Below the pieces are notes generated by a model that saw nothing but the letters and a program-made list of their open reading frames with translations, was not told the origin of the DNA and made no database searches. From an uncultured Candidatus Saccharibacteria bacterium (GTDB taxonomy: Bacteria; Patescibacteriota; Minisyncoccia; Phycocordibacterales; UBA2100), in assembly GCA_964398775.1 (NCBI GenBank), contig CAYNND010000003.1, positions 3,879-67,878 of the forward strand: a stretch of 64,000 nt of DNA, given 5' to 3'. Below, piece after piece: positions 12,470 through 49,231 of the stretch (positions are counted from its first letter, which is position 1; every line of letters begins with the position of its first letter). The translations under genes were made by a program, and so were the position numbers.

Positions 12470-13720
12470 CTACCACAGGCACGTTTTGAAAATACAGAGC
12501 GATGTACCTGTCTCATCAGCTTGGTTTGTGATGCGAAAGCCGTCTGTATCAGGAGTTTTTTTCGGCTTAAATATACAACTTGCACGCGCAACGACTTTGC
12601 GACTTGCATAACAGTCAATAGCAAAGACCGTCGAACGGAGTGGTAGTTTCACCTCCACAGTTCCAAGTGGCAGCTTTCGAGAATTAAACCCCCTCCCTTC
12701 TGTGGTCATTTTACCGCTGTACATATTTCCACATGACCACTCGATGGTAACCGTATGTGCGTCACTACGCTGCACGCAGCGCATCATTGGTTTTTTTCGC
12801 TCTGGTTCCTCTTCCTCAGTAAGAGTATCATCTACATACAAATCGGCCGCGGTCTTGGCATTTGATACTCCTGACTGCACCCCAGTATTCATCCCAGTAG
12901 CGCTCGTACTTATGCTATTTGTAGTTGGATATTGTTGTTGTGTGTACGGGTTTTGCTGTGGCTGTGTTTGATACTGTGGTGATTGTTGCATCTGCTGTTG
13001 CGTTTGGGGTTGCTGATACTGTTGCGCTGGTGTAGTCGCCCATTGTCCATCTTCTTGTGCGCCTGTCGGCATGATGTTTTGGACAACACCTTCAAGTGGT
13101 GTCCCACGAGCTGCTTCTTGAAGTATTTGACCTGTCGCAGTATGCAAAACTCCTCCAGGTGTTTGTATATTGGCGCCATTCTTGAGGAACGTCTGCAACA
13201 TGGTACGGACGCCAGGGTCAGTAATCTGCGCAATACCTGAACTTGAGTAGCCAGGACCCCATGCTGCGACTGCTTGTCGATTATCGACATGAAACTTATT
13301 TCCATTGTAGTATCCGAGTCCACCAATGCAGCGATTCTTGCAGCAGAGCCCTGCAAGCAGTAGCTGCCCAAAACGTTGTGCATTTCCTTTGACGACAACA
13401 TCAACTGCCCGCCCCTGCATGTGCTGGCTTTGTGATGCACCTCCAACTGAGGCGTTGTGCTGCGGTGAACGATATCCTGAGGTTACAGTGCATGCAGTAT
13501 TTTGGTTTGTGCGAATAAGCTGCTGAACATCTCCTCCCATCGCTGCGCATGCATTTATAACAATATCTGACGTGTACGTGTCGGCACCTAGCAACTTAGC
13601 TCCGTGCGTACCAGAAACTTCTTGCGGGCATGCAGGATTTTGAGCAGACCCAGCAGCATAGGCAACAGAAGTTGAGTTGAGCGCGAAAAATACTAGTACA
13701 AATATTGATTTCATATGCAA
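12470..13720 (-). CDS. Secreted Peptidase_M15_3 (MepK/YcbK-like LAS metallopeptidase) with Q-rich linker and one copy of shared C-terminal domain A
   Basis: 416 aa. Signal peptide MHMKSIFVLVFFALNSTSVAYA. LAS motifs SGYRSPQHNASVGGASQSQHMQGRAVDVVV and GLGYYNGNKFHVDNR. Linker QQYQQPQTQQQMQQSPQYQTQPQQ. C-terminal MMRCVQRSDAHTVTIEWSCG...FAIDCY...ASC is domain A of the paralog family. Confidence 0.75.
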   Translation of the reverse strand: MHMKSIFVLVFFALNSTSVAYAAGSAQNPACPQEVSGTHGAKLLGADTYTSDIVINACAAMGGDVQQLIRTNQNTACTVTSGYRSPQHNASVGGASQSQHMQGRAVDVVVKGNAQRFGQLLLAGLCCKNRCIGGLGYYNGNKFHVDNRQAVAAWGPGYSSSGIAQITDPGVRTMLQTFLKNGANIQTPGGVLHTATGQILQEAARGTPLEGVVQNIMPTGAQEDGQWATTPAQQYQQPQTQQQMQQSPQYQTQPQQNPYTQQQYPTTNSISTSATGMNTGVQSGVSNAKTAADLYVDDTLTEEEEPERKKPMMRCVQRSDAHTVTIEWSCGNMYSGKMTTEGRGFNSRKLPLGTVEVKLPLRSTVFAIDCYASRKVVARASCIFKPKKTPDTDGFRITNQADETGTSLCIFKTCLW

Positions 13721-15246: not shown

Positions 15247-15301
15247 TACTCTATTCTATCGTGTTTTTTACTCTAGCTGACCATCCGTCCACATCCAACA
15301 C

Positions 15302-16735
15302 TTATATTTCATCAAGAGGATCTTCGAAGATTGTCTGTACTTGGTTTGTTTGTCCTGTATTATTTTTTTGTTTTGCTTCATCATACAATACATCCTCTTC
15401 GATAAGTGTTACCGTCTCTGTTTTTGTGAAAACGTCAGTACCAGTTTTTGCTTTACACTTTATCGTAAATGTTTCTTCATTATCAATGGACGCAGATGAT
15501 ACTCGCCCACTCTTATCCGAAGAAGCGACTCCAGGACCTGTCACTGTACAGGAGCGCGCGTTTTGTGATGACCATACAACCTCTACAGTCTCTCCTGGAT
15601 ATACCTCTTGTGGCTCTACACTGAAACGCACAGATAACTTGGCGGTTGGTTTTGCTACTTGTATTTCGCAGGATTGCTTACCGACGACAACCGCACCTTT
15701 TTTACACTGGACGGTGTAGCGAGTTTTTTGTTGCGGTTTTACAACTGAAGAACCACTTGCTTCACCCTTTGTGTTAAGCGGCGCAAATGAGTTTGAAGAA
15801 CTCCCTACTGAGCGTGTCCCTGCAGGACACTCCCATTCAATACTTACTGATTCTCCTTTCGTAACTGACTCGGGATCACAAGTAAGCGTTATGCCACCTT
15901 CTGCTCCAGGGTCAGTAATTGCTGACTCCTCAGGTTTTTTTTGAAATGGATCTTGTTGCTTCATCTCAGGTGGCATACCTTGTTCCCCAGAGCCAGCCCC
16001 AGGCTGTCCTCCTCCGCTTGGTTGTTGTCCCGTCTGTGGACTGCCTTGCTGGTCTTGACCGCCTGGTGGTTGCTGCCCACCTCCTGGTGGTTGCTGCCCG
16101 CCCTGTCCTGGGTCTGCAATCGGACCACCACCTTTACACGGTGGAGTAGAAGGACTGCATGCCGCCTGACGATGTTCAATACACTGAATATGAGGACCCC
16201 AGTACGGGAAATGGAGCTGGTATTGCCCGGCAAGTCGCTTCAACACATCAACGCAGTTAACGTCAACTGCAAGTCCGTACTGATGGCAGGACTTCCCCGC
16301 AGGAGCACAACCACTCCTTCCACCACCACACATAGATGCCTGTTTTGCAGCACTTCGATAGGCACTGTTTATGCGAGGCGAGCAGCCAGAACGTGCTGCT
16401 GCATCGAAAAGCTTTGAAAGTCTGCACGCCAGACCTGAGTTGATTCCCCCTTGCCCATTCGGACCTGAAGGTACGCATTCGTTTTGTCGAGTGCATCCAT
16501 ATTTTGCGAGTGCTTGGAAGGGGTCTGTATCGCAACCACCATTTAAAATTCCCTTGTCTGAGGCTGTCGCATTGCTCATATCAATTCCCATTGAATTTAC
16601 TTGCGCGGTCTGCATTGATTCATCAGAAAACTCTTGAGTGAGGGTCACCAAAGATACGTCACCTCGAAGTGAGGCCGCGCCAACGACAAGCACTATTGCG
16701 AGCGTCGAAAAAAACCATGCGGTTTTATGCATCAC
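15302..16735 (-). CDS. Secreted VanY/M15B-like D,D-peptidase domain protein with G/Q/P linker and C-terminal A+B module
   Basis: 477 aa. Signal peptide MMHKTAWFFSTLAIVLVVGAASL. Motifs SAYRSAAKQ, SCHQYGLAVDV and LHFPYWGPH. Linker GGQQPPGGGQQPPGGQDQQGSP. C-terminal LTCDPESVTKGESVSIEWECP...YTVQCKK...QSC plus LSVRFSVEPQEVYPGETVEVVWSSQNARSCTV...FTIKC. Confidence 0.7.
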   Translation of the reverse strand: MMHKTAWFFSTLAIVLVVGAASLRGDVSLVTLTQEFSDESMQTAQVNSMGIDMSNATASDKGILNGGCDTDPFQALAKYGCTRQNECVPSGPNGQGGINSGLACRLSKLFDAAARSGCSPRINSAYRSAAKQASMCGGGRSGCAPAGKSCHQYGLAVDVNCVDVLKRLAGQYQLHFPYWGPHIQCIEHRQAACSPSTPPCKGGGPIADPGQGGQQPPGGGQQPPGGQDQQGSPQTGQQPSGGGQPGAGSGEQGMPPEMKQQDPFQKKPEESAITDPGAEGGITLTCDPESVTKGESVSIEWECPAGTRSVGSSSNSFAPLNTKGEASGSSVVKPQQKTRYTVQCKKGAVVVGKQSCEIQVAKPTAKLSVRFSVEPQEVYPGETVEVVWSSQNARSCTVTGPGVASSDKSGRVSSASIDNEETFTIKCKAKTGTDVFTKTETVTLIEEDVLYDEAKQKNNTGQTNQVQTIFEDPLDEI

Positions 16736-16780
16736 TCTATTCTACCAAGTATTTATCGTCCTGCGTCGACATACCCACAG

Positions 16781-18082
16781 CTACAATGCATCTGCAGGGT
16801 ATTCACTGTCTTGCGTATCTGTGTAAAAACGAACTGTCGCTGTCCGTGTAATCTTCTGTTGTTTTTGCTGACCAATACAAGTCAGTGTATATGTGACGTC
16901 GCGAGTAATCTCTTCCGTCGTGACACGACCTGACATGTCTTGCGAAGACACATCAGGGCCAGACAATGTACAGCTTTTTGCGTTAGCACTACTCCATGTT
17001 AGCTCAACGCGCTCTCCCGGACGAACCTCACTTGGGCGGGCCGATAGTCTGACACTCAGTGTTTGTTTTTGAGCGATGACCGGTATCGTACATGAACCTG
17101 TCGCTACTACTTTATTTGCCTTCACACAGGAAATGGTAAATGTTGTTTTTGATTTTGGCGCAACCTTCAAAACACCTTCCATTTTATTTTTTGTGTTGAA
17201 TGATGCCAGGTTCGGCTGAGCATGACTTCGTGATTGAGAAGCAGCGGGACACTTCCATGAAATTGAGGCTGAACTCCCCGGTGTAATTGTTGCAGGGGTG
17301 CACTCTATTTCAATATCGCCGCTCTCCTCTACAGGCGCTTTTGATTCAGCAACATCAGAGGCTTTCCCGTTTTGAGACGCAAGGAAATTATTTGGATTCT
17401 GACCAAATGATGTGCCCTGGCCTTGTTGAGTACCAGTTTGCTGTTGCGGCGTTTGCCCTGAAGCGGGAGGCTGCCCTTGCTGGCCTGTCGCATCCTGACC
17501 TTGTCCAAAGGATGCAGTATCTTGACCAGATGGAGGTGTCTGTGCCTGACATGCTGCATCGCAGCTACCCATTTGAAAATGCACTGGATCTCTCCCTCGA
17601 ATAGTAGGTGGATTAAAAATGCCGTACTGCGAACTAATTTGGTGTAGTTTTGTATAAATAGCAGCAGGACCTACATCTACTGCGAGACCTCTTCCATGAT
17701 ATGAACGGCCAGGTGGGGCTGCCAAACCACCACCGTTTTGATACCGCGCATACGCAGCGGCTTGTTCTTGAACACTTCGAAACGAATCATTTATGCGCGC
17801 ACGCACTCCTGTTTGCTGTTCTGCTGCTTGAATAGCTTGCATGACACGTTGACCAAACTGAGGGTTAAGTTGACGCATACGTCCGCATGAGCGACCACCG
17901 CATCGCGATTCAAGAAATTGAATCCAGTCTCCGTTTTGCGCGCCGAGCAGGTTCGTATCGCCTTGCATGAGAATTGTATCTTTGGGCAAGTTCAATGATT
18001 TAATTATTTCTGCGTGCGCAAAAGAAGAGGATATACACGCAATGCAAACAAATATTGATATATACGCAGTGGTGTATTTCAT
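16781..18082 (-). CDS. Secreted VanY/M15B-like D,D-peptidase domain protein with Q/G/T linker and C-terminal A+B module
   Basis: 433 aa. Signal peptide MKYTTAYISIFVCIACISSSFAHA. Motifs NDSFRSVQEQ, SYHGRGLAVDV and DPVHFQMG. Linker QGQDATGQQGQPPASGQTPQQQTGTQQGQG. C-terminal IECTPATITPGSSASISWKCP...FTISCVK...GSC plus LSVRLSARPSEVRPGERVELTWSSANAKSCTL...YTLTC. Confidence 0.7.
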   Translation of the reverse strand: MKYTTAYISIFVCIACISSSFAHAEIIKSLNLPKDTILMQGDTNLLGAQNGDWIQFLESRCGGRSCGRMRQLNPQFGQRVMQAIQAAEQQTGVRARINDSFRSVQEQAAAYARYQNGGGLAAPPGRSYHGRGLAVDVGPAAIYTKLHQISSQYGIFNPPTIRGRDPVHFQMGSCDAACQAQTPPSGQDTASFGQGQDATGQQGQPPASGQTPQQQTGTQQGQGTSFGQNPNNFLASQNGKASDVAESKAPVEESGDIEIECTPATITPGSSASISWKCPAASQSRSHAQPNLASFNTKNKMEGVLKVAPKSKTTFTISCVKANKVVATGSCTIPVIAQKQTLSVRLSARPSEVRPGERVELTWSSANAKSCTLSGPDVSSQDMSGRVTTEEITRDVTYTLTCIGQQKQQKITRTATVRFYTDTQDSEYPADAL

Positions 18083-18085
18083 AAG

Positions 18086-19630
18086 TTATTCGACAGTTAG
18101 TTCTGCTTCTTGTATAGCACGCGCACCGGAATCAGTTATGCACGAAAGTGTAAACGTGTGTGTGCCGCGCAGCGCAAGTGGTGGCGTCTCAATACTTCCC
18201 TCTATTCCTTCTTCTTTAAAACCTCGTGCGCGAAGCTCGCACGATTCGACCCTAACAGCACTCCATTCAATGAACGCAGTTTCTCCTCGGCTCACAACAC
18301 TCGGTTCAATGCGCAGAGATAACACTGGAGCTGCAGTGTTTTTTTGTTGCTTTTTCCCGGGGATGCGCGGCACATACTCGCATGTCGCCTGGTCAATGAT
18401 ACGTTGATTACGAAGACATTGTACAGTGTAGACAGTTTTCTTTTTTGCACTGACAAGCGATGTACCTACAAGCGAGCCGCGTGTTGAGAACTTACTGTCA
18501 TGCGGTGCTGAAAGTGCACGCGAAGTTGAACTGCCTGTACACGACCAGGATACAGAAGTTTCTCCGCATTCGATAGTTGCGTATGATTCCTCTTCAGCAA
18601 CAGCTCTATCTGTGACATTAAAGAAGCCATTTTGAGTGTTATATGCTTGCGCGGCTGGTTGGTCTTGATACTGAGGAAATCCCGATGTCTGCTGAGGAGA
18701 TTGCTGCTGTGATGGCGTTTGCTGTTGTGATGTCTGTTGTGATGATGGTGACTGCTGCCCACCCCAAGAACCTGGCTGCGCAGTATCCCAAGAACCTGGC
18801 TGTGATGCGTATTGGTTTAAAGTACTTTGGTATGCCTGCTGGTTGAGCGAACCATCAGGGTTAAATACATTTGTTGCAAGCGTCCCAAAGCCTGATGTTG
18901 CAAAAGAGGAAGTCAGCGAACCAGGAAGTGGCGGGCGTGTCCCGAGAGCAACAGCAACCCCGCGCTGTAGTGCAGGATATCCACGCACCATGAGGTTTAC
19001 TGCATCGGCACCTGTTGAGCCGCACTGAACCGGAACTTTGTTTACCGAAAGCGCCCAAACTGCACCACGACCAGCACATGAAAGTTGCATGCTAAACACA
19101 GACGAAGGATCCGCCGAGAGCAGAGCTCTGTGTGTTTGCGATGGCATGAGTTGTAACAACATCCCAATCGCAGCCTGTCTATATGAATCTGAAGTTGCAC
19201 GTTCAATTGGGTTTAAAAAACGAGCATTGTTTCCATACCATGCTGCAGCGCTCAACATATGACTTCCTCTTCCAAGTGAACCGGGTAATCGCCTGGTTTC
19301 TGCTTGGAGCACCTCAAAGAGGACCGGGTCATGCTGGCGGGCAATAGGAAGATACGCAGCAATACCGCGGTTAAATTGTTCTTCACTCAGCGCATATGAA
19401 CCTTTATATGCTGCGGCGTGGCCATTACAATTTGGTCGTGCTCCGCACTCTTGATGGAATACAGCGATTCCGACCAAACTTGCTGTGCGTTGCTGACAGT
19501 TGTATTGCTTACATGCCACACCGCCCACATACTGGATTTGCTGAATAGGGTCTTGCGAGAGTGTATTTGCCGAGAGCTGTCCGATACTCAAAAAAAAGTA
19601 CGCCACACAGATAGAAACGAGTAGTCTCAT
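18086..19630 (-). CDS. Secreted protein with unknown N-terminal domain, S/Q-rich linker and C-terminal A+B module
   Basis: 514 aa. Signal peptide MRLLVSICVAYFFLSIGQLSA. N-terminal domain of ~300 aa with no recognised motif. Linker SQQTSQQQTPSQQQSPQQTSG. C-terminal TIECGETSVSWSCTG...YTVQCLRNQRIIDQATC plus LSLRIEPSVVSRGETAFIEWSAVRVESCEL...FTLSC. Confidence 0.6.
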   Translation of the reverse strand: MRLLVSICVAYFFLSIGQLSANTLSQDPIQQIQYVGGVACKQYNCQQRTASLVGIAVFHQECGARPNCNGHAAAYKGSYALSEEQFNRGIAAYLPIARQHDPVLFEVLQAETRRLPGSLGRGSHMLSAAAWYGNNARFLNPIERATSDSYRQAAIGMLLQLMPSQTHRALLSADPSSVFSMQLSCAGRGAVWALSVNKVPVQCGSTGADAVNLMVRGYPALQRGVAVALGTRPPLPGSLTSSFATSGFGTLATNVFNPDGSLNQQAYQSTLNQYASQPGSWDTAQPGSWGGQQSPSSQQTSQQQTPSQQQSPQQTSGFPQYQDQPAAQAYNTQNGFFNVTDRAVAEEESYATIECGETSVSWSCTGSSTSRALSAPHDSKFSTRGSLVGTSLVSAKKKTVYTVQCLRNQRIIDQATCEYVPRIPGKKQQKNTAAPVLSLRIEPSVVSRGETAFIEWSAVRVESCELRARGFKEEGIEGSIETPPLALRGTHTFTLSCITDSGARAIQEAELTVE

Positions 19631-19655
19631 TCGAAAAGTATACCATCCAAAAGTA

Positions 19656-20912
19656 TCACTCGACGTATATCTCCTTCTCTATATGCACTTCTGAATCATC
19701 CAGCGCTTTGCAACGTAGCTGTATGCGCGAACGTCCTCGTATCAATAGTGACTCAGTGTCAACAGAACCCACAGGGCCTTTTTCTGAAATACCTTGTCCA
19801 CTGACGACACACTGCTTCACCTTGTATGCTGACCATGTCACATGCACATGCCCCCCACGTCGCACGCTCTCTGTGCTTATTTCAAGCTTAAGCTGCGGTC
19901 TGTTGATTGTGCTTTGTATTGCGCCAGGAATAACACATGATGCAAATGCCACCTTTTTATTTTGTGTGTAGCACTCGATTGTGTACATAGTCTTTACTCG
20001 AGGAGTCACTTGAATCTCACCGCGTACCGCAACTGCACCTCTGAGCGCTCTGCTGAGTGGTTTCGAACGCCCTCGCGCTGATGTAGTTCCTGTACCACAT
20101 GACCACTGGATAGATGTTTTAGTACAGATAAGCGATAGTTTTTCTGGCGCATCATCCTCACCTGTTGAGTCCTCGGGGACAAAAGGTCCTTTAGGATTTT
20201 TTGTGTCAGTTACACCGGTCGGTCGAGTTTCGCCTGGCTGTTTTTCTTTTCCTGGCTGCTGCGTATTTTGCAGTGGTGTACTGCCCGTTGAACCAGCACT
20301 TCCGCTTTGCACACCAGTTGCAGCAGTACCTGCCCCATCTTGAGCATTCCCCGTGAGCACATTGCCATACCCTGTATTTCCATTTCCTGCAGGATCAACA
20401 AGACCTTGATTTGACGGCGTAAAGCTTACATTTTTCCCTGAAGCGAGTGCACTCGCTTGGGCGTCAGTGCAGCTACTGCAGATCGTTGTATTTACATCAA
20501 GTTTTTGAGGCCTCCCTCGAAATGCCCCGCCCGTGTCATGCACATATCCAATCACATTTTGTACTGTATGTTTTTGCCTATCGAGCGCTGAAGTATATGT
20601 AATTGTACCGAGATTGAAATACTTACCATAGTTACTTGAGTCAGATGCGAGCGTCACATATTTTGAACGACCTGAACGCACATCATCGAGCGAACGCGGA
20701 ACTCGCTGCCCATCAAGTCCTGGGCGAGATGTTTCAACACAGCCTTCCATAGAGGTGCGGCACCCCGGAGCGTTGTGGGGTACATAAAAAGTTATGATTC
20801 TATCTGATGCTGTACAGGGCGCCGCTTGTGTACAAGCGTGTACAGACTGCGGAAGCAGTACTGCAAGAATGAGAGCAGAAAGGACGGCGCTCATGCGTAC
20901 AGTATACTTCAT
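19656..20912 (-). CDS. Secreted 3D-domain (MltA/Rpf-like lytic-transglycosylase-associated) protein with G/T-rich linker and C-terminal A+B module
   Basis: 418 aa. Signal peptide MKYTVRMSAVLSALILAVLLPQSVHA. 3D-domain signature GYVHDTGGAFRGRPQKLDV preceded by Asp-containing strands. Linker GNGNTGYGNVLTGNAQDGAGTAATGVQSGSAGSTGS. C-terminal LICTKTSIQWSCG...YTIECYTQNKKVAFASC plus LKLEISTESVRRGGHVHVTWSAYKVKQCVV...IQLRC. Confidence 0.7.
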   Translation of the reverse strand: MKYTVRMSAVLSALILAVLLPQSVHACTQAAPCTASDRIITFYVPHNAPGCRTSMEGCVETSRPGLDGQRVPRSLDDVRSGRSKYVTLASDSSNYGKYFNLGTITYTSALDRQKHTVQNVIGYVHDTGGAFRGRPQKLDVNTTICSSCTDAQASALASGKNVSFTPSNQGLVDPAGNGNTGYGNVLTGNAQDGAGTAATGVQSGSAGSTGSTPLQNTQQPGKEKQPGETRPTGVTDTKNPKGPFVPEDSTGEDDAPEKLSLICTKTSIQWSCGTGTTSARGRSKPLSRALRGAVAVRGEIQVTPRVKTMYTIECYTQNKKVAFASCVIPGAIQSTINRPQLKLEISTESVRRGGHVHVTWSAYKVKQCVVSGQGISEKGPVGSVDTESLLIRGRSRIQLRCKALDDSEVHIEKEIYVE

Positions 20913-20916
20913 ATGT

Positions 20917-22398
20917 TTATCGTACTTCTACTTGGACAGATTTTGAAATCGTATCTCCGTCTGTGGTTCTGCACTCGAGCACATACTCTGCTGTTCCTCG
21001 TGTATAGAGTTCATCAGTACTCGCAGAACCTTCGGTCCCCTCTTCAGAAAGGCCTTCGCCGAACACGACACATGAGTCAACACGGACAGCGGCCCAAGAA
21101 ATCATCGCCGACTTCCCCCTTCGAACCTCTGTGGTATCGGCATTTATTGTCAAAACTGGTTTTATTGTTGTTCCAGCGCTCGGTGCAGTTTTTTGAGGAG
21201 TAAAAACACACGATGCTTCACTAATAATGGATTGTCTTTTTAAACACTGTACGGTGTATGTTGTTTTTCGTGAAGGTGCAACTGCAAGTGATCCGATGAG
21301 TGCACCACGTGTTTTAAATTGTGCATCTACAGGCTTTGAAATACCTCGAGAAAGTGTTGCGTCACTCGGGCAACTCCATTCAACAAGCTTGTCTTCACAC
21401 GTAAGCAAATCATCGTCAGAGACTGTTTCATCTTCTGAAACTACTTCAGTATTCTGAAACGGAGTTTGCTGAGAAGGGTTTGTTGGTTGAAATGGGTTCT
21501 GGTACGGATTTTGCATAAATGGCTGGCTTGGTTGTTGCTGCCCTGCTTGTTGCGTACCGCTTTGTTGTGACCCTGTCTGGGGTGACGGTTGTGCCCACTG
21601 GCCTTGTGATGCAAATGGATTTTGCCCTTGATTGTCCTGTGGGTTACCTCCCATACCTTGGATTAGGCCGCCGAGTGGGCTATTGTTCCCCTCTATTGCT
21701 GTGCCGAGACTTTTCAATTGTCCCACATCGGCTGGAACTGAGCCTGGAGGGATTTGCCCATACGCCATGGCTGTTCCCTGGGCGAGTTGTTCGCATGTGT
21801 AGTTTACGAAGCCAACTTCAATACGTGCAGAAGAGAGCGCGATCTTCGCCATCATATCCTTATCATTTGGGTTAAATACCTGATTGGGCTGAATTCCGAC
21901 CCAGCTCGCTACGGTGTTTGCATAACTTGTCGGATTATTTCCACCATGACATGAAGGTGCCCACACTTGTTTTAATTCAATTAGCGTACACCGCGGTCGG
22001 GAACCGCCACCCCTATTGCATGCATCTGGTCTTCCTCGAGTACACATATCTCGAATGAGTGCGACATGCGCTGCAATTCCGTGCACAACAGAGGGAAAAA
22101 TTGCTGTACGATTGTTATTACTAAAACCTTGGCTTCCGAATTGCCGTGCAATAGGATTGTATACTTGCGCACCTGGGTTACGCGTCTCACATGCAAGCTT
22201 GCATTGCCCATTTCCTCTTTTTGTTGCCATGAATTGCTGACACCACTGCATGAACGCAGGAGACAACCCTGCGACATCTTGATTTGCTGCATGTACTGGC
22301 GTCACATAAAACGCACCAAAAAACAGACATGCGACAAAAATAGAACATGCGATCGCAGTTCGCTGCACTACGACGTATTGTGTGCGCAGCGTGTTCAT
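20917..22398 (-). CDS. Secreted protein with unknown Cys-containing N-terminal domain, Q/P-rich linker and C-terminal A+B module
   Basis: 493 aa. Signal peptide ...AIACSIFVACLFFGAFYVTPVHA. N domain of ~230 aa with no recognised motif. Linker QGQWAQPSPQTGSQQSGTQQAGQQQPSQPFMQNPYQNPFQP. C-terminal LLTCEDKLVEWSCPS...YTVQCLKRQSIISEASC plus LTINADTTEVRRGKSAMISWAAVRVDSCVV...YVLEC. Confidence 0.6.
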   Translation of the reverse strand: MNTLRTQYVVVQRTAIACSIFVACLFFGAFYVTPVHAANQDVAGLSPAFMQWCQQFMATKRGNGQCKLACETRNPGAQVYNPIARQFGSQGFSNNNRTAIFPSVVHGIAAHVALIRDMCTRGRPDACNRGGGSRPRCTLIELKQVWAPSCHGGNNPTSYANTVASWVGIQPNQVFNPNDKDMMAKIALSSARIEVGFVNYTCEQLAQGTAMAYGQIPPGSVPADVGQLKSLGTAIEGNNSPLGGLIQGMGGNPQDNQGQNPFASQGQWAQPSPQTGSQQSGTQQAGQQQPSQPFMQNPYQNPFQPTNPSQQTPFQNTEVVSEDETVSDDDLLTCEDKLVEWSCPSDATLSRGISKPVDAQFKTRGALIGSLAVAPSRKTTYTVQCLKRQSIISEASCVFTPQKTAPSAGTTIKPVLTINADTTEVRRGKSAMISWAAVRVDSCVVFGEGLSEEGTEGSASTDELYTRGTAEYVLECRTTDGDTISKSVQVEVR

Positions 22399-22401
22399 AT
22401 A

Positions 22402-25400
22402 TTACTCACCTACGTATTCTTCTCCTGGAGCCTCCTCCGTGCCATCACTTGACACTTCGATAGTAACAGAGTCTGACGCGCGAGTTTTTCTATCTGGTGC
22501 AATACACTCAACGCGGAACTGACTAGTCTCGTATAGATTACCAGTGACATAGCCTGAGCGTCCGACCTCTTTGAAACATTTCGGACTGTCTTTACCAAAC
22601 GTGTCACATCCCGGTCCGTAGACTACACATGATGCAGTGTTTTGACTTCTCCATGTAACTTTTACTGAAGTACCTTTCGGTGCTGCAGGCGGTTCGGCGG
22701 AAATTGATACAGTTGGACGAGCTCCTGAGGTCGTTGTTGTCGTAGTACTAACACCGTTCACCTCAACTCGGCACGAGCTTCGTGCAATTTCTTTGTTGAA
22801 CTTGTCTCGGCAGCGAACGACATAGGTAGCATCACGGATTGGCTTAACATTTGCAGACCCCTCGGCATCTCCACCCGTTCCAAACTCACCATCTTCAGTA
22901 CTTGTTCCAACAGACTTTTCTGTTTTCGCTGGGCATGACCAAACGACAGCTGCTTCTTCACCAGCTTTAATGGTCTCTGGATCACACGACATATCAGCCT
23001 CACCAACTTCTGTCGTATCATCTTCCTCTTCCTCGTCCTCTTCATCAGCAGGTTTTACGAAAACTTTTACAGGCGGCGTACAGACATTTGTTCCAATTTC
23101 ATTCGCCACCTTTATCGTATACGTAGTTGTACGCTCAGGAGACACATCAACAGAGCCCCCATCGACGACCCCGAGACTTCCTTTTTCGGGCGCGCCTTTT
23201 TCATCGGTCGTTGTAAAGTTGATGATAGTTTTTAGTGTTCCCTTACCAGTGACGTCCCATGTAATTGTCGCACTCTCTCCAGACTTGATCGTCTTTGGAG
23301 TGATAGATACAGAATCTTCAGTACACTTTGGTGCTTCAGTCGGCGTGTTCTTTCCATAGAGATCATCCCACCACCATGGCTTCTGGTTTTGGTTGTTATT
23401 ATTATTTTGCGGTTGCTGTTGCTGCTGAGCAAGTGCTTTAGCAATTTCTCCAAGCGCTTTACTTGGGTCTCCACCGCCGCCACCAGGTGGGCTGCCACCG
23501 CCTGGAGGATTACCCCCTCCTGGAGGGTTCCCGCCACCTGGTGGTTGGTTTCCAGGAGGAGTGTTCCCTGGAGGAGTTGCTGGTGCTGCCTTACAATTAC
23601 CTTGTCCAGGGGTATCACATGGGTTCCCCTTATCATCAACACCTTTCTCTTTTGCTTTTTCTTGATCTTCTTTTCGGCAGACCATGACCGATTGTCTACC
23701 CTCACCAGATTCAACCGCACAGACTGTATAACCTTTTGTCTTTATAGCACTGATATCTTCCTGGTTCATCACAGGAACAGTACTGTATCCCATACGCTTA
23801 CACATATCGTGGCATTTTTTTCTGGCTTCAAGTGCCTTATCCTTACTCTGGCATTCACCATTGGTTTTATCGGCTTTAGTCTTGTCTTCACCAGTAACTT
23901 TTGGGGTATACACACCCCACTCTACTGGCATAACAGAATCTTTGTGTGTTCTGTCTTCAAACTGCTTTACACATTTTGGATCAAGTTTTGGTTTTGCGAC
24001 AGCACCACCAGAAGTTGTCTTGCACTTTTCTTCCATGATTTTCTTGTTCTCTTGATCACAACGGCCTGTCAAAGTATCTGCCGTTTTTGTGACAGGAGTT
24101 TTAGTTTTGTCTGGCGCTGGTTTTGGGCACTCTTTTGGTTGACCCGGAAGACCTGCAACACATACTGCTGCAACTTGTCTACTGCCAATTGAAACCCTGT
24201 CAACAGCACACCAGAAACAGAATGTGTTTCTGAGCCAAGAACCAAAACGATTGAAAAATCCTTGTCGCTCTTTCGGAACACGCTCACTGCCGCCAATTAT
24301 ATCTTCTGTAAGACCTCCAGTGACGGACTCACGAGGTCGATTCCAGAGATTTCGGACCTCATCAGGTGTCAGGTCATTCATATTCTCGATTCGATACCCG
24401 CGCTTTATATTTGCACGCGCCTCTGCTTCTCGCGCTGCGCGCTCCAGAGTCTCCATATCTTCCTTTGAATAGACTCCGTCTTTGCCGAGTTCATCTGCAA
24501 GCTGGTCAAACGCTTCATCGACCTCAAGATCTTCCACACCAAATGCATTTGGGTCTGCTTTCAGAGCATTTGGGTCATTTTGAAATGCGTCTGGATCACT
24601 TTCCAAATCTTCTTTCTCACCGTATTTTCCGATAAAGCCATCGTAGTTCAAAGCTCCGGTACCCGTTGCAGTCTTTGATCCTCTCTTTAAATCAGTATTT
24701 GTGTTCGTGTCTGTCGTCTTGCCGCTTCCATCACCGAGTGGATTCTCGAGTGACTCATCGTTACCTCCTTCATCTGAAGTTGTATCACTGTCATCAGTCT
24801 CTCCATCGTCTTCACCATTAGATACATCTGAATAATCACCATTTACATTTACAAAAACTTTTGTTTTACATGTACTAAATCCACTTCTATTTTCGACTTT
24901 CAACGTATAGGTAGTCGTCTTCGTGGGAGAAACGGTTGCTGTACTGCCCGTTGCCTCACCTACTCCAGGACTAATAGTCACGCCACCTGGGGCACCCTGC
25001 CCACCTGAGGCTTCTGGTGTTCCTTCTGAGACAAGCCAAGAAAGTGTTGTTGATTCGCCACTTTTTACTGGCTTTGTGCCTGACGCTGCAGAAAAGTCAC
25101 TGCACTTCGGCACCTTTGTGTATCGAGGGTCCACGTACGGAGGAGTATCCCCACTGCCACCCTGATCACCACCACCTCCTCCGCCACCACCAAGTGCCTT
25201 AAGCATCTGACCAATCGCATCCATAAGTCCACCGGCACCACCTGCGAGACCCTGTGCTGCAGGTTTAATCATACAAGTCTGTCCACCTTCTGCATTCGCG
25301 AAGCATGATATTGGTGTACACGTTTTCTTTTGTTCTTTTGTTGCTTCGGTTTCAACACCAATAGAACCACCAGTTGAGAATGAGTTTTTATCACATGCCG

Positions 25401-25578
25401 CACCAGTTACTGATTGCGCAACTTGTCGCGTCATAGACCGAGGCATCCCTGCTGTCTGGTCTATTGCTCCGATAATGAGTACGAGAAGTACCATGAGACC
25501 GCCGAGCTGCGCGCCATGTCTGAGCGCAGCGCTCGTTTGGCTCTGTGATGAGTCTGACATAATGTAATAGTAACGCAC
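22402..25578 (-). CDS. Giant membrane-anchored surface protein with Gly-rich segments, two PKD/Big-like beta-sandwich repeats, Cys-rich central region, PPGx repeats and C-terminal A+B module
   Basis: 1058 aa. N-terminal TM LGGLMVLLVLIIGAI with no cleavable signal. Two repeats of the type SGES.T.SW.V....TTTY(T/I)(L/I)KV.N..G...C...V.V. Cys-rich block CHDMCKRMGY...VCAVESGEG...VCRKED. Repeats PPGNTPPGNQPPGGGNPPGGGNPPGGGSPPGGGGG. C-terminal DMSCDPETIKAGEEAAVVWSCP...YVVRC...SSC plus VSISAEPPAAPKGTSVKVTWRSQNTASCVV...FRVEC. Confidence 0.65.
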   Translation of the reverse strand: MRYYYIMSDSSQSQTSAALRHGAQLGGLMVLLVLIIGAIDQTAGMPRSMTRQVAQSVTGAACDKNSFSTGGSIGVETEATKEQKKTCTPISCFANAEGGQTCMIKPAAQGLAGGAGGLMDAIGQMLKALGGGGGGGGDQGGSGDTPPYVDPRYTKVPKCSDFSAASGTKPVKSGESTTLSWLVSEGTPEASGGQGAPGGVTISPGVGEATGSTATVSPTKTTTYTLKVENRSGFSTCKTKVFVNVNGDYSDVSNGEDDGETDDSDTTSDEGGNDESLENPLGDGSGKTTDTNTNTDLKRGSKTATGTGALNYDGFIGKYGEKEDLESDPDAFQNDPNALKADPNAFGVEDLEVDEAFDQLADELGKDGVYSKEDMETLERAAREAEARANIKRGYRIENMNDLTPDEVRNLWNRPRESVTGGLTEDIIGGSERVPKERQGFFNRFGSWLRNTFCFWCAVDRVSIGSRQVAAVCVAGLPGQPKECPKPAPDKTKTPVTKTADTLTGRCDQENKKIMEEKCKTTSGGAVAKPKLDPKCVKQFEDRTHKDSVMPVEWGVYTPKVTGEDKTKADKTNGECQSKDKALEARKKCHDMCKRMGYSTVPVMNQEDISAIKTKGYTVCAVESGEGRQSVMVCRKEDQEKAKEKGVDDKGNPCDTPGQGNCKAAPATPPGNTPPGNQPPGGGNPPGGGNPPGGGSPPGGGGGDPSKALGEIAKALAQQQQQPQNNNNNQNQKPWWWDDLYGKNTPTEAPKCTEDSVSITPKTIKSGESATITWDVTGKGTLKTIINFTTTDEKGAPEKGSLGVVDGGSVDVSPERTTTYTIKVANEIGTNVCTPPVKVFVKPADEEDEEEEDDTTEVGEADMSCDPETIKAGEEAAVVWSCPAKTEKSVGTSTEDGEFGTGGDAEGSANVKPIRDATYVVRCRDKFNKEIARSSCRVEVNGVSTTTTTTSGARPTVSISAEPPAAPKGTSVKVTWRSQNTASCVVYGPGCDTFGKDSPKCFKEVGRSGYVTGNLYETSQFRVECIAPDRKTRASDSVTIEVSSDGTEEAPGEEYVGE

Positions 25579-25621
25579 GCTCTAAAAAAAGCACGCGATT
25601 ATGCACCAATACTGTGTAGAA

Positions 25622-28012
25622 TTATTGAACGTCTACCTTTACAGAACGGGTGCGTGTCTCAGAACCTTTTTTACACGTGAGCGTGAATACAAGCGGCCCA
25701 GGTTTATCAGAAGTACCGGACACTTTTCCTTCATTTGTATCCTGTTTAAATCCGTTTGGACCAACCACCGAGCATGAGTCAACGTTTGCCGTCCTCCAGT
25801 TAATGGTCACTTCCTGCGTCCCGACGGCAATTTTTGCTGGTTCTGCAACAATTGAAAGTTTCATGTCTGTGCTTGTCGCAGCAGTGGGTGCGCGTTTTAC
25901 AGCAGTGGGACGCTGTGTTTGAGTGCTCCTCGGGACAACACGAACACTGCAAGAGCTCGTAGCTGAACGCTTTGCCTTTGTGCTAATGCAGCGTACTGCA
26001 TAGACCGTAGATGATTGCGGAGTTACCTTTAAACTCCCCGATGTTTTCCCTTCAACATAGAACGATTCCATCTCAGAGAGTGGCGTCCCGTTCAGATGCT
26101 TAGCAAGTGACGTGGCACGACGTGAGTTATCAGGGCATGACCACACGATAGTCGCACTCTTCCCATCTTCGACATCTTTGGGTGAGCATCGTATTTCTGG
26201 CTCAAGTGTCGTATAGTCCTCCTCTGCCTCTTCCTCCTCTTCCTCAGCAACGACGACATCTCGCTGGATTATCTTTCTTGGTTTTACAGAGATGGTTATC
26301 GGGCCGCAACATGCAGCGCCCGGGATCCCACAACTTTGCTGTTGTGGTTGTGTGTACTGAGGGTAGCTCTGTTGCGCGTAGGCATTTCCATTTATTGGCG
26401 AGCCGTCGAGTGCGGTTCCTGTGTCGTACTGTCCCATTGTTTGCTGCCCGTACGAGCCGTACCCACCCATCGTTTGCCCAGCTCCAGGAATACCGTAACC
26501 CACAACACTATATGCTGTCGTTTCTTTTGGACGAACTGTCACACTACTACCATTAATATTCCCAGAACCACCACGAAGTTCATACCGAATAGCATATGGG
26601 ATATTCCATTGAATCGTCACCTGCTCTCCCTCGGTTATTTCGCGTTTGTTAGCGTTAATACCGGCACAGTACGGAGCTGGCATATTTGGCTGCTGCAGTT
26701 GTTGATTTTGCTGAGGCTGCTGATTTTGCTGAGGCTGTGAGCCCTGTTTTGGCTGCTCTTTTGGATTACTACTTGAAGATGTTGGTCTAAATCCGCTACC
26801 ATCGTTGGTCGGTTGCTGTGGAGGCCTCTCGGGGCCTGGTGCTGGTGTAGGGTTTTTGTTTTTATCTTTTTCGGAATCAGGGGGTGTATTCCCAGATCCT
26901 CGGTGTGGGTTTGTCTGAGCAACTCGGTCAAAAGCCTCTGCAGAATTAATTTTTTTCAATTCATCGTCTAGCTTGTCTTTTTCAACACTCACAGGATTTG
27001 ACTTCGGCACCCACTCACCCTGCTCATTTTTTACAAACGTTTGATACTGACATTTACCTTGGGCATCACACGTCGCAACAATCCGTCGATTATCATCGAT
27101 ATCATGTCGAAATTCTTTTCCTGGTTCTGACTGCGCCTTTTTTGCTAACTCTGCTTGGCTTCCGGTGGCCGTTGCCGTATTTGGATTTAAGTCAGGCTTC
27201 GGACGAAGCTCTTCCTGAAGCTTTTCTGCATCAGCCTTTGTGCAAGCAACATGCCACCTCCCTTTAAACATTGGTAAGTCTTCGCGAGTTTTTCCTGTTT
27301 TCTTTTCAGCCTCAGTAAGCACGCGAGGGCGAGACTGGTCGTACCAAAATACAACTGCTGTGTTACCGCTCTTTAGTTCAGTTATCGGGCATTCTTTACG
27401 CTCAGCAACAACAGCATTCTTGAATCGAAGTTGTACGTTCAGACTCGTATTCTGATGGCATACTGCATTCATTGAAAAGCGTTGTGTCTCACCTTGAGGC
27501 TGCTGATACCCAAGTGTCATGAATGGGACAGTAATGCTCGCACCACCGCATGAGACCGCTTGCCCATCATTTGCGCTGCCATTCGTACAATTTAGTGTTG
27601 TTTGGGTACCATCTGGACAGGTTTTCTTTCCAAATATGCCCTCGCCTGTTTGGAGTGCTGTTTGACACGCATGACTCTGGGCACCACCTCCCATCTGCTG
27701 ACAAGTCGCCTGGACACTTTGGCATTGCTTCTGCGCATCTCCGAGTTTGTAACATGCTTGCGTAGCTCCATTTTCGCGAGAAGTTGTTATGTCTGCACAT
27801 TTTGGTGTACTCGAATCTGTCTGCTGTCGCTCACATGCTTGCATGACCGTCCTCCCGTTACGCTGCACCATTTTGTATTCAACTGCAGCTTCCGCAAAAC
27901 TGAGTGCGCTGAGTAAAAAAAGTGAGCAGATGAATAGAGTACGCATAGTGAGCCGCTGTATCATGGGGTAAGTGTACCACTTGGATAGACACGAGTACCA
28001 AGCATTATGCAC
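25622..28012 (-). CDS. Large secreted protein with Cys-rich N-terminal region, Q/P-rich linker and C-terminal A+B module (true start probably an internal Met near 27964/27946)
   Basis: 796 aa ORF. Signal-like MRTLFICSLFLLSALSFAEA after an internal Met. Cys-rich N region with no recognised motif. Linker QGSQPQQNQQPQQNQQLQQP. Acidic stretch VVVAEEEEEEAEEDY. C-terminal EIRCSPKDVEDGKSATIVWSCP...YAVRC...SSC plus LSIVAEPAKIAVGTQEVTINWRTANVDSCSV...FTLTC. Confidence 0.6.
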   Translation of the reverse strand: MHNAWYSCLSKWYTYPMIQRLTMRTLFICSLFLLSALSFAEAAVEYKMVQRNGRTVMQACERQQTDSSTPKCADITTSRENGATQACYKLGDAQKQCQSVQATCQQMGGGAQSHACQTALQTGEGIFGKKTCPDGTQTTLNCTNGSANDGQAVSCGGASITVPFMTLGYQQPQGETQRFSMNAVCHQNTSLNVQLRFKNAVVAERKECPITELKSGNTAVVFWYDQSRPRVLTEAEKKTGKTREDLPMFKGRWHVACTKADAEKLQEELRPKPDLNPNTATATGSQAELAKKAQSEPGKEFRHDIDDNRRIVATCDAQGKCQYQTFVKNEQGEWVPKSNPVSVEKDKLDDELKKINSAEAFDRVAQTNPHRGSGNTPPDSEKDKNKNPTPAPGPERPPQQPTNDGSGFRPTSSSSNPKEQPKQGSQPQQNQQPQQNQQLQQPNMPAPYCAGINANKREITEGEQVTIQWNIPYAIRYELRGGSGNINGSSVTVRPKETTAYSVVGYGIPGAGQTMGGYGSYGQQTMGQYDTGTALDGSPINGNAYAQQSYPQYTQPQQQSCGIPGAACCGPITISVKPRKIIQRDVVVAEEEEEEAEEDYTTLEPEIRCSPKDVEDGKSATIVWSCPDNSRRATSLAKHLNGTPLSEMESFYVEGKTSGSLKVTPQSSTVYAVRCISTKAKRSATSSCSVRVVPRSTQTQRPTAVKRAPTAATSTDMKLSIVAEPAKIAVGTQEVTINWRTANVDSCSVVGPNGFKQDTNEGKVSGTSDKPGPLVFTLTCKKGSETRTRSVKVDVQ

Positions 28013-28723: not shown

Positions 28724-31102
28724 TTATTTAAGCGCCCCCCAGTGTGGGCCAATTGCATATGCTGCGATAAGTGGGATACCCGCAGTCTCAGACGGTGGCA
28801 GTACATCTTCCATGATTTTTTGTATATGCTTTGCAAATGTTTCCGCGTGCGCTTCATCCACCTCATACACCAACTCATCATGAACCTGCAACACAAGGTC
28901 AACATGCTTTCTGAGTTTCTGCGCTTCAATGTATTCATCAGCTTCGACCATCGCACGTTTAATGAGGTCAGCCTGTGTGCCCTGTATCGGCGCGTTTACT
29001 GCCATGCGTTCTGCAGCAGCGCGAATAAAAGGGAGTGGTGACGCAAAACCCTCAAAATATCTTCTTCTTCCAAAGAGTGTTGTAGTGTACCCAAGTCGCT
29101 TTGCCTCTGACTTTGTTGTATCTATCCAGGACGCGAGCGTGCTGTATGTAGCAAAATAAGCGTCAAGATATGAACGCGCTTCTTTTTGAGATACATTTTC
29201 TCCGAGCGTTTGCCTCAGGGCATTTACACCCATGCCATAGAGAATGCCGAAATTTATTACTTTGGCTTTCCGCCGCATGTCTGAGGTGACAGCGGTACGC
29301 TCAACTTGAAAAACATCAGCTGCAACTGCAGTATGCACATCAACTCCATCGACAAATGCTTTGGTGAGGAGCGGGTCTTTTGATAAGAGTGCGGCAATGC
29401 GGAGCTCAACCTGCGCATAATCGAGCGCAATGAGCAAGCGCCCTTTTCGAGCAACAAATGCATTTCTGATCCGCTTACCGAGCTCAGTCTTGATTGGGAT
29501 ATTTTGCAGATTCGGGTTGATTGAAGACAGTCTTCCAGTCGTTGTTCCTGTCTGCTGAAACGTTGTGTGGAGTCTCCCTTGTCTGTCGATTTGTGTTGGG
29601 AGGGTATCAATATATGTAGAGAGCAGCTTTTGCAACTCACGATACTCAAGAATCAGTTTGATGATTGGGTGCGCGTCAAATATTTTTTGCAAGTCTGACT
29701 CCTTTGTAGAGCGAGCACCTGTTGGTGTTTTTGCCCGCCCGATAGGTTTAATCTGCAAGGTATCATACAGAATATCTCCGAGCTGTTTTGGTGAATTAAT
29801 ATTGAATGTTGTGCCAGCGCATGCATATATTTTCTCTGAAAGCGCATCAAGCTCAGTATGGTATTCAGTTGAAAGTTTTGCGAGATACTCTGTGTCGAGC
29901 TGTACCCCTACTGCATTCATCCGTTCAACAACTGGCGTCAGTGGTTCCTCAATTTCAGTGAACACCCGCTGCAAACCACGCGACTCAATAAGCCCTTTGA
30001 GGATGGGGTACGCAGCTTCAGTATCATGTGTCTTTGTTATGGTGAAAATATCTTCTACCGTTGGCTCAGTCACCTCTGAACGGAGCAGCCACACCATGAG
30101 TAACATTTGTTTTATGTGTGGACTCGTGTGCATCTTTTTTTCGCTTGTACCTTTCTCGATCGTTTCTACACTACTGTTGTTTGGTGATGCCTGAGTTCGA
30201 TTTCTAAGGCGCTGTGTGAGCGAGCGAAACTCATAGTGTTCACAGAGGGCAAGGACGCCTGGTAATGCTTGTTCAAATACAAAGGGGCGATGTGTATCTA
30301 TTACAACGGGAGCATCAGTGCGAATAGTAGCGAGCATTTTTGAAAACTGCGCCTCTTCTTCTCCGTGTGAAATTAATTCACAGGCACGCGGCTTGAAACC
30401 AGCCTTTTTAAGTACTTCGCTATCTTTTTTAAGAGCTGCGTATACACCATCAACCCCACCAAATTGCTTAATAAGCTCAGTAGCTGTTTTTTCTCCTATA
30501 CCCTTAATGCCGGGGATATTGTCAGAACTGTCCCCCGCAAAACCCTTATAATCAGGTATCTGCTTTGGGGTAAACCCGAAACGCGCCTCAACAGCGGCGG
30601 CATCGTACATAACGGTGTCTTGTATCCCCTTTCGTAAGGTAAACACTTTTACGCGCGTACCATCGATGAGCTGCATCGTGTCCATATCCCCTGACGCAAT
30701 AATCACTTCAATATCTTTTTCTTTTTTTGTGTGTTCTACGATTGTCCCCAAGATATCGTCCGCCTCAAACCCCGGACAATCAAGTATGGGAATTTGAAAT
30801 GCGGCAAACACATTGCGTGAAGTGGCGAGTTGCATAACGAGTGCATCGTCTCCTTTTTTTCTTGTACCTTTGTATGCCTCGTAGATGTCGTGGCGGTGCG
30901 TTTTGTGTGGTAAGTCATAACAGGCAATAAGCACATCTGGAGATAGCTCATCGATTATTCGGACAAGCATATTACAGAGTCCATAAAGAGCTCCCGTGGG
31001 CTCGCCCTTGCTTGAAGAAAACTCTGGGAGCGCGTGATATGCGCGGTGTATGATGGCATGCGCATCAAGCAAAACTATCCTTCGGTGCTGACCTTTTTTC
31101 AT
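28724..31102 (-). CDS. polA: DNA polymerase I
   Basis: 792 aa. N-terminal 5'-3' exonuclease domain (VLLDAHAIIHRAYHAL, GIPGIKGIGEKTA). C-terminal family-A polymerase motifs (DYSQIELRI-like DYAQVELRIAA, RRKAKVINFGILYG, QVHDELV). Confidence 0.9.
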   Translation of the reverse strand: MKKGQHRRIVLLDAHAIIHRAYHALPEFSSSKGEPTGALYGLCNMLVRIIDELSPDVLIACYDLPHKTHRHDIYEAYKGTRKKGDDALVMQLATSRNVFAAFQIPILDCPGFEADDILGTIVEHTKKEKDIEVIIASGDMDTMQLIDGTRVKVFTLRKGIQDTVMYDAAAVEARFGFTPKQIPDYKGFAGDSSDNIPGIKGIGEKTATELIKQFGGVDGVYAALKKDSEVLKKAGFKPRACELISHGEEEAQFSKMLATIRTDAPVVIDTHRPFVFEQALPGVLALCEHYEFRSLTQRLRNRTQASPNNSSVETIEKGTSEKKMHTSPHIKQMLLMVWLLRSEVTEPTVEDIFTITKTHDTEAAYPILKGLIESRGLQRVFTEIEEPLTPVVERMNAVGVQLDTEYLAKLSTEYHTELDALSEKIYACAGTTFNINSPKQLGDILYDTLQIKPIGRAKTPTGARSTKESDLQKIFDAHPIIKLILEYRELQKLLSTYIDTLPTQIDRQGRLHTTFQQTGTTTGRLSSINPNLQNIPIKTELGKRIRNAFVARKGRLLIALDYAQVELRIAALLSKDPLLTKAFVDGVDVHTAVAADVFQVERTAVTSDMRRKAKVINFGILYGMGVNALRQTLGENVSQKEARSYLDAYFATYSTLASWIDTTKSEAKRLGYTTTLFGRRRYFEGFASPLPFIRAAAERMAVNAPIQGTQADLIKRAMVEADEYIEAQKLRKHVDLVLQVHDELVYEVDEAHAETFAKHIQKIMEDVLPPSETAGIPLIAAYAIGPHWGALK

Positions 31103-38098: not shown

Positions 38099-38107
38099 AA
38101 AAAAATT

Positions 38108-38368: not shown

Positions 38369-38369
38369 A

Positions 38370-45562: not shown

Positions 45563-45639
45563 CTGTCTATTGTAGCAGGTTTTTAGATTCGCGTAGCCGT
45601 GGATGTCAAAAACACATTCCCCACACTTTCTGCGTTGTG

Positions 45640-47487: not shown

Positions 47488-47491
47488 AGTA

Positions 47492-48160: not shown

Positions 48161-48163
48161 AGC

Positions 48164-49220: not shown

Positions 49221-49231
49221 AGTTTTAAATT

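Follow-up and report, generated by a model that had tools for sequence, protein, structure and literature searches.

What the largest protein encoded within a row of secreted wall hydrolases does for its cell is the question raised by this locus, which lies in a 64-kb window (the whole stretch of DNA that was analysed, 64,000 nucleotides of contig CAYNND010000003.1). The organism belongs to the class Minisyncoccia of the candidate phyla radiation (CPR), and its nearest records are metagenome-assembled genomes labelled Minisyncoccia or Kaiserbacteria, or mislabelled Saccharibacteria. The target open reading frame (ORF), at 22402-25578 on the minus strand with the stop included, specifies 1058 aa from a GTG codon, and the coordinates and length given by the initial annotation matched the ORF list exactly. 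It is the largest gene of an unbroken co-directional run from polA (28724-31102) to guaA (10886-12460), in which nine consecutive minus-strand genes (12470-28012), the target included, carry a common C-terminal tail. The initial annotation had suggested that the product is the surface-tethered scaffold of this system. The analysis described here points instead, with moderate confidence, to a membrane-tethered, variable recognition or adhesion protein of the cell surface, neither an enzyme nor a scaffold. The Cys-rich core of the protein was found to be an allelic cassette exchanged between near-identical strains, and the gene itself to be real and lineage-restricted, in a conserved gene order.

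The cassette follows directly on a signature region that is common to the protein family, as shown by these features:

23671-24207, minus strand: variable cassette, aa 458-636, a Pro/Lys linker followed by an 8-Cys alpha/beta domain of about 140 aa (aa 500-636, nt 23671-24081), from strain-pair comparison and AlphaFold2 (AF2)
24208-24471, minus strand: family signature core, aa 370-457, helices, LTPDEVRNLWNRPRESVTGGL, then RFGSWLRNTFCFWC, from profile search and alignment
24208-24219, minus strand: invariant CxxC (CFWC), C454-x-x-C457, from alignment

Related loci were sampled by a genome scan (four loci), a metagenome scan (three loci) and a protein search with the tail alignment (eight fragments). 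Two independent pairs of strains among them were almost identical over 19 kb, with DNA identities of 97.6-98.4% (L001 and L007) and 95.9-98.8% (L004 and L008), and each pair showed one break, inside the target gene. In the first pair the block spans nt 1350-2002 of the gene, beginning 8 codons past FCFWC, with 55% mismatch inside it versus 1.6% in the rest of the gene; in the second it spans nt 1323-1926, beginning 6 codons past FCFWC, with 51% versus 1.9%. The unalignable stretch is about 600 bp in both. At the protein level, P0004 and P0005 show 100% identity in aa 1-435 and again beyond about aa 680, with 17-50% identity in between, and the P0005 allele is not a one-off assembly error, since it was recovered from several independent samples. 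The ten cassette sequences represent six or more allele classes (18-41% identity), and all keep eight Cys, a P-x-E motif and a terminal VCR; the allele of the window belongs to the class of P0001-P0003 (78-80% identity). The Cys-dense region pointed out by the initial annotation is the same part of the protein, with 14 Cys between aa 454 and 662, eight of them conserved across the cassette alleles. In the wider family, the site after FCFWC holds unrelated inserts or none.

Structure prediction of the Cys-rich region with AF2, using an alignment of eight sequences, gave an alpha/beta domain of the order H-H-E-E-H-E-H-E-E (predicted local distance difference test, pLDDT, 68; predicted TM-score, pTM, 0.51). 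A fold search with this model returned no significant match (PDB best E 0.26, BFVD best E 0.02, TM about 0.2), and no known enzyme domain was recognised in the region by Pfam, NCBIfam, PDB sequence or fold search. For the target as a whole, nothing significant was found in Pfam, NCBIfam, PADLOC or PDB sequence searches, and the sole PHROG match was that of the segment containing Ig-like module 2 to phrog_2155 (Ig-bearing virion proteins, E 2.5e-8).

The order polA, holA-like gene, a gene for a protein of about 670-796 aa, target, and tail-bearing hydrolases was kept in L001, L004, L005, L007 and L008, even where the target orthologue is only 28% identical, and the number of hydrolase genes ranged from 5 to 9. 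Five full-length orthologues of the target were recovered, together with about ten more distant family members of common architecture; for the exact protein of the window, a look-up among assemblies gave no record. An exhaustive search of 1.84 billion representatives, with a profile of the central region, retrieved no more than 17 proteins, whose common signature is LTxxE..G.WxRP....TGxLG ... R.GxW.K..FCFWC. The CxxC pair C454/C457 is invariant in all 13 aligned members, with the motif around it altered in P0026 and P0029 (FCVWC, LCPWC) and the spacing kept. In short members of about 548 aa, FCFWC passes directly into the tail, without Ig-like module 2, while long members insert the variable region and that module.

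The N-terminal part of the protein bears on whether it is held at the cell. Its true start is probably the ATG at 25558-25560, which would give 1052 aa, because the orthologues P0001-P0003 and L008 begin MSDSS and a hairpin overlaps the GTG start codon. Downstream of the start lie:

25462-25506, minus strand: hydrophobic segment, aa 25-39 (LGGLMVLLVLIIGAI), candidate signal-anchor, from sequence and orthologue alignment
25273-25395, minus strand: juxtamembrane Cys region, aa 62-102, with C62, C92 and C102 invariant across the family, from alignment

It had been suggested initially that an N-terminal anchor replaces a cleavable signal peptide. The hydrophobic segment is present and lacks an AxA after it, whereas AxA-type cleavage sites occur in all eight neighbours; retention of the segment is plausible from the pattern of its sequence, and cleavage is possible. 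The n-region is 18 aa in the target versus 2-15 aa in the neighbours, and throughout the family it is 10-22 aa and partly acidic. The stretch LGGLMVLL[V/I]LIIGAIDQTAGMPR, comprising the hydrophobic segment and DQTAGMPR, is identical at 22 of 23 positions in orthologues of about 50% overall identity, and more distant family members hold a similar hydrophobic segment, YRLFAPLLVVIVIIAGVDLSS. Comparison of window proteins with their L001 orthologues (overall identity 32-53%) gave only 11-39% over residues 1-45 for the eight neighbours, whose h-regions could not be aligned. The constancy seen in the target would be surprising in a signal peptide that is discarded, so tethering is plausible. Given this conservation, the long and partly acidic n-region and the lack of an AxA, it is fairly likely that the segment is retained as a membrane anchor. 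A bacterial lipoprotein was considered and rejected, as there is no lipobox and the first Cys, C62 (...TGAAC), lies 23 residues past the hydrophobic segment, with Gly at -3.

Beyond the membrane, the chain would consist largely of related beta-sandwich modules:

24844-25110, minus strand: Ig-like module 1, aa 157-245 (PKC...TTTYTL...C), from BLAST, AF2, Foldseek and hhalign
23050-23331, minus strand: Ig-like module 2, aa 750-843, from BLAST, AF2, a hidden Markov model (HMM) of the tail, and hhalign
22756-23049, minus strand: acidic linker, aa 844-860, and tail domain A, aa 861-941, with four conserved Cys, from BLAST, MAFFT, AF2 and HMM
22405-22716, minus strand: tail domain B, aa 955-1044, with a target-specific 2-Cys insertion, and acidic C-terminal peptide ...EEYVGE, aa 1045-1058, from BLAST and HMM

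The two additional beta-sandwich repeats described initially are thus present (aa 157-245 and 750-843), but their description as PKD/Big-like and of a different type from the tail did not hold. Modules 1 and 2 are 38% identical to each other (E 5e-14); pairwise hhalign comparison gave 94% for A with B, 95.5% for modules 1/2 with A and 70% for modules 1/2 with B, and the tail HMM also matched module 2 (E 6.6e-7). On these scores the extra modules are relatives of the tail domains, that is, divergent copies of the same Ig-like module type, and the protein has four related modules. A Pfam-A hmmscan at E<=1 found no PKD or Big family for the target and reached no Pfam Ig threshold. Assignment to the Ig-like superfamily follows from the beta-sandwich fold and from similarity to recognised repeats: AF2 predicted all-beta modules at aa 158-241, 758-842 and 862-941 (pLDDT 65-83), a Foldseek search against PDB returned only Ig/FN3 adhesion-type proteins, SiiE among them (E down to 2e-7), and modules 1 and 2 are 31-39% identical by BLAST to PF07679-annotated tandem repeats of Verrucomicrobiota giants such as P0007. 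The protein has 30 Cys in all, in conserved pairs within the Ig modules, and this pairing, like the Foldseek matches, speaks for an extracytoplasmic protein. Each extra module is preceded by an amphipathic helix (GLMDAIGQMLKAL or ALGEIAKAL), a homopolymer (G8 or Q5..N5), an aromatic patch (PPY or WWW) and PKC, and this common arrangement suggests that a larger unit was duplicated. Module 1 is also mosaic between close relatives, being 40-55% identical to P0003 with flanks of 80-97%, and a 9-aa insertion within it, ASGGQGAPG, is common to the window protein and P0001.

The A+B tail that the initial annotation had placed at the C-terminus was matched over aa 861-1044 by a profile built from the tails of the target and six neighbours (E 1.4e-60), and the tails of individual neighbours were matched by BLAST at E 7e-19 to 9e-6. 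In the MAFFT alignment, an A domain (C...WxC...C...C) is followed by a B domain (W...C...C). Both domains are present in seven of the nine cluster genes; in the other two, A is followed not by B but by a short end that contains Cys. Within the window the tail HMM matched only the nine cluster genes, and it matched all cluster genes of the related loci. The two A-only genes are the M15_3 and GH114 genes (12470-13720 and 13711-15246), the most downstream of the array, and they end in …LCIFKTCLW and …LCVFNFCI; this short Cys motif is conserved, and recalls the aromatic FCFWC motif of the target.

The modules are spaced by stretches of simple sequence:

25168-25236, minus strand: amphipathic helix GLMDAIGQMLKAL and Gly8 run, aa 115-137, from model and alignment
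24538-24843, minus strand: acidic/Thr-rich low-complexity spacer, aa 246-328, then three DPxAF/DPNAL repeats, aa 329-347, from sequence
23374-23670, minus strand: low-complexity linker, aa 637-735, with PPGx/PPGGGN block, helix ALGEIAKAL, Gln/Asn runs and KPWWW, from Tandem Repeats Finder and sequence
23470-23574, minus strand: PPGx/PPGGGN block, aa 669-703, from Tandem Repeats Finder and sequence

The Gly runs (G8 at aa 130-137, G5 at aa 699-703) and the PPG block, which reads PPGN-TPPGN-QPPGGGN-PPGGGN-PPGGGS-PPGGGGG, are as they had been described. A DNA-level repeat behind the block, also claimed initially, does exist but is weak: Tandem Repeats Finder detected an 18-bp unit at 23501-23541 (2.3 copies, 82% matches, score 54), and the PPG units are encoded with differing synonymous codons. 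The repeat number varies among homologs, with a 27-bp unit encoding QPGGSPSGG in 3.0 or 4.0 copies in orthologues, and a Gly/Asn tract in place of the block in P0004 and P0005. Since both unit and copy number vary, the block is best seen as a fast-evolving Pro/Gly spacer. The PPG/Gln linker of the target is 28-45% identical to those of P0001 and P0003.

The neighbours of the target in the array are, for the most part, recognisable as enzymes:

12470-28012, minus strand: nine-gene array of tail-bearing secreted proteins, from domain searches, alignment and tail HMM
12470-13720, minus strand: Peptidase_M15_3 gene, from Pfam
13711-15246, minus strand: GH114 gene, from Pfam
15302-16735 and 16781-18082, minus strand: two VanY genes, from Pfam
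20917-22398, minus strand: endolysin-like gene, from phrog_873 (E 7.8e-11)

At least five of the eight neighbours carry wall- or polysaccharide-hydrolase domains (VanY twice, M15_3, GH114 and endolysin-like). The N-terminal domain of the product of 20917-22398 resembles PHROGs of phage endolysins and tape-measure lysins (phrog_873, and phrog_2276 at E 8.5e-10) and has no Pfam family; it may be an unclassified peptidoglycan hydrolase. Direct domain searches gave no assignment for 18086-19630, 19656-20912 and 25622-28012, and PDB sequence searches of the four neighbours without an assigned domain were uninformative. The product of 18086-19630 has no PHROG or Pfam match, and may be a paralogue of that of 20917-22398, because both have the same best orthologue in L001. 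Directly upstream of the target, 25622-28012 (minus strand) encodes a 796-aa protein without a family match. Its N-terminal part is very rich in Cys, and inspection by eye alone suggests one extra Ig-like module (…PYCAGINANKREITEGEQVTIQW…) ahead of the A+B tail. In all relatives this gene belongs, with the target, to the core of the locus. The locus is flanked at 9323-10225 (plus strand) by a gene for a secreted protein with a weak match to the Lamin-tail domain (LTD), and likewise in L001 at 22395-23123. A promoter and terminator scan gave no excess over shuffled expectation.

Several other explanations of the target were weighed. As the scaffold of the initial annotation, it would use Ig-like modules 1 and 2 as cohesin-like receptors for the A+B tails of the hydrolases, which would be dockerin-like, in the style of a cellulosome. 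In favour of this, no other cluster member lacks an AxA signal peptide, the target has two extra Ig-like modules, and it belongs to the core of the locus, in which the hydrolase genes vary in number from 5 to 9. Yet it bears the same A+B tail as its supposed clients, its two extra modules would have to serve eight partners, the 796-aa upstream protein seems, by eye only, to have a similar module despite a normal signal peptide, and short family members lack module 2. No cohesin or dockerin match was obtained by Pfam in the target or its neighbours. A hypervariable head is not expected of a scaffold, and the swapping of the cassette argues for a role in recognition or contact, so that a scaffold appears quite improbable. 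A somewhat unlikely alternative is a structural protein of the wall or S-layer that is secreted with its signal peptide cleaved, and in which the cassette is an exposed epitope under escape from phages that use it as receptor, or from predators, and does not bind a host. The 15-aa core of the h-region and the small residues at its end would allow cleavage by signal peptidase I (SPase I), the A+B tail alone could hold the protein on the envelope as in the neighbours, replacement of a cassette is equally typical of phage receptors, and the segment with module 2 has the resemblance to Ig-bearing virion proteins mentioned above. However, genuine signal peptides at an equal evolutionary distance show far less conservation than the hydrophobic and juxtamembrane stretch does, and the n-region is long and partly acidic family-wide.

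Invariance of CFWC could also suggest an extracytoplasmic thiol-disulfide oxidoreductase or folding factor, as every protein of the cluster has conserved Cys pairs needing oxidation and the target seems to be membrane-anchored. This is very improbable: Thioredoxin, DsbA, VKOR and DsbB gave no match by Pfam, NCBIfam or PDB sequence search, AF2 placed CFWC at the end of a low-confidence helix with no Trx-like beta-alpha-beta unit around it, the motif is altered in two family members, and the Ig modules, the tail and the variable cassette would be left unexplained. The last alternative concerns the source of the variation. Diversity-generating retroelements (DGRs) are common in CPR genomes, and a sharply bounded hypervariable block inside a conserved surface-protein gene might be the product of a DGR, an invertible shufflon or silent cassettes of the pilE/pilS type. 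A tblastn search of the window detected no second cassette copy, and hence neither a template repeat nor a silent locus. Inverted repeats are absent from the flanks of the cassette, and its GC and GC3 values are near those of the rest of the gene. These results speak against a DGR, a shufflon and silent cassettes, which are largely refuted for the window, and the absence of a GC or GC3 anomaly argues against a recent foreign origin. The alleles, moreover, differ by indels and at about 50% of positions over some 600 bp, not by adenine-specific substitutions, and the annotation of the orthologous loci includes neither a recombinase nor a reverse transcriptase, so programmed variation is scarcely tenable. 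The evidence favours old alleles that strains have exchanged through homologous recombination in the conserved flanking sequence.

The preferred reading, then, remains that of a tethered and variable recognition or adhesion protein. The N-terminus would stay in the membrane as a signal-anchor, and the extracytoplasmic chain would be made up of disulfide-bonded Ig-like modules spaced by acidic, Gly, Pro-Gly and Gln/Asn linkers. The A+B tail, common to the neighbouring secreted wall hydrolases, presumably gives these proteins and the target a common destination, an envelope layer or contact site, as analogy suggests. Between the invariant FCFWC junction and Ig-like module 2 would sit the Lys-rich, 8-Cys alpha/beta head, a cassette that strains swap by recombination within the conserved flanks; highly divergent alleles persist in near-identical genomes. 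The head would contact a variable partner surface, that of the episymbiont's host cell or, alternatively, a phage, beside the co-encoded hydrolases. Recognition or adhesion is the most likely job because the pattern of the cassette is typical of diversifying or frequency-dependent selection at an interface between cells, or between cell and virus; from the features as a whole we infer membrane retention, surface exposure, the role of the tail and a binding function. As a more tentative extension, the segment from FCFWC to VCR might be a dedicated display site on a tethered stalk. Heads that are unrelated or highly diverged would be swapped there by homologous recombination, much as phages exchange receptor-binding tips, and would set the host or phage that is contacted, while the previously undescribed tail would gather a variable set of peptidoglycan and exopolysaccharide hydrolases at the contact zone.

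A number of points weigh against this reading. The strongly hydrophobic core is short, at 15 aa (about 23 aa when the flanks are counted), and SPase I could accept IGA↓I or TAG↓M as a site, so that the segment may instead be a cleaved signal peptide. The cassette model is only of moderate quality (pLDDT 68, pTM 0.51) and that of the whole protein is poor, with a mean pLDDT of 43. Variability of the cassette fits escape from phages equally well, and the targeting role of the tail is drawn from analogy only. With dN/dS saturated, and with two strain pairs and about ten cassettes, diversifying selection is not quantifiable, and the lineage is rarely sampled.

The wider window holds other genes that may be relevant to the lifestyle of this bacterium. 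About 17 kb from the hydrolase array, a region at 43233-58454 (minus strand) contains an ATPase set among large ORFs without a Pfam match. One of its products is VirB4/TraC-like (PF19044 P-loop_TraG, E 4e-27; also TraC_F_IV; 45640-47487, minus strand), and the region is probably the monoderm-type type IV secretion cluster that has been described for Patescibacteria (PMC12102498). The same survey of type IV secretion systems of Patescibacteria found no PrgB-type adhesins (PMC12102498). The dnaN and dnaA genes (38370-40998, minus strand) adjoin a GC minimum of 0.365 at 38001-40000, versus about 0.47 elsewhere, and YidC is encoded at 41628-42332; it is probable that the replication origin lies within the window. 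A fused EPSP synthase-shikimate kinase gene (aroA-aroK, 4062-5858, minus strand) lies beside that for chorismate synthase, and the aromatic amino-acid pathway is relatively rich for a CPR genome.

To our knowledge, almost nothing is known of how CPR bacteria other than Saccharibacteria recognise and hold their hosts. The locus offers a testable candidate: a conserved, probably tethered protein with one bounded domain that is wholly different between strains of 96-99% identity, adjoining a strain-variable set of wall hydrolases with a new two-domain tail. Should partner specificity depend on the cassette, the latter would provide a host-range marker in metagenomes and a handle for co-culture; otherwise, the protein still illustrates clearly a surface-protein family that is new and restricted to one lineage. 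The swap would be of interest to CPR specialists, with its function putative and its lineage sparsely sampled.

The protein, its tail and its cassette are outside any curated family, while the general kind, a variable modular surface protein that shares a targeting module with hydrolases, is known. The Cwp proteins of C. difficile (CWB2) and the SLH families of Bacillus are paralogous secreted enzymes and adhesins with an envelope-anchoring module, partly clustered. The present array resembles them in having paralogous enzymes and adhesins with a common module, partly in one locus, but differs in that Pfam recognised no choline-binding, CWB2, SLH or LysM repeats in the nine cluster proteins, and anchoring by the A+B tail is putative. 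Tandem bacterial Ig repeat proteins, such as the PF07679 giants of Verrucomicrobiota and those of the SiiE/invasin type, are similar in sequence (31-39% identity) and in their Ig/FN3 matches by Foldseek, whereas the Ig-like modules of the target number only four, each contain a conserved Cys pair and are set among unrelated ones. The likeness to cellulosome scaffoldins is one of concept only, a cell-attached, multi-module protein beside enzymes that share a terminal module; there is no cohesin/dockerin homology, the putative scaffold has the enzymes' own tail, and receptor modules are too few. With the receptor-binding proteins of phages it has in common a conserved proximal part, a sharp junction and a distal domain that is swapped between near-identical genomes, but the target is chromosomal, in a housekeeping neighbourhood (polA...guaA) with no phage genes around, and its cassette has no BFVD fold match.

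The best functional analogy, in the sense of likeness and not of membership, is the choline-binding family of pneumococci, in which the mosaic proteins PspA and PspC/CbpA are hypervariable and have their anchoring module in common with the hydrolases LytA/B/C. There is no relationship in sequence or fold: the shared module here consists of two disulfide-bonded Ig-like domains in place of choline-binding repeats, and the target has a probable N-terminal hydrophobic anchor, an 8-Cys alpha/beta variable part rather than a coiled coil, and a single gene array in a CPR bacterium. What the two have in common is a C-terminal module shared by hydrolases and large surface proteins, regions that are exchanged between strains, and a Pro-rich repeat linker.

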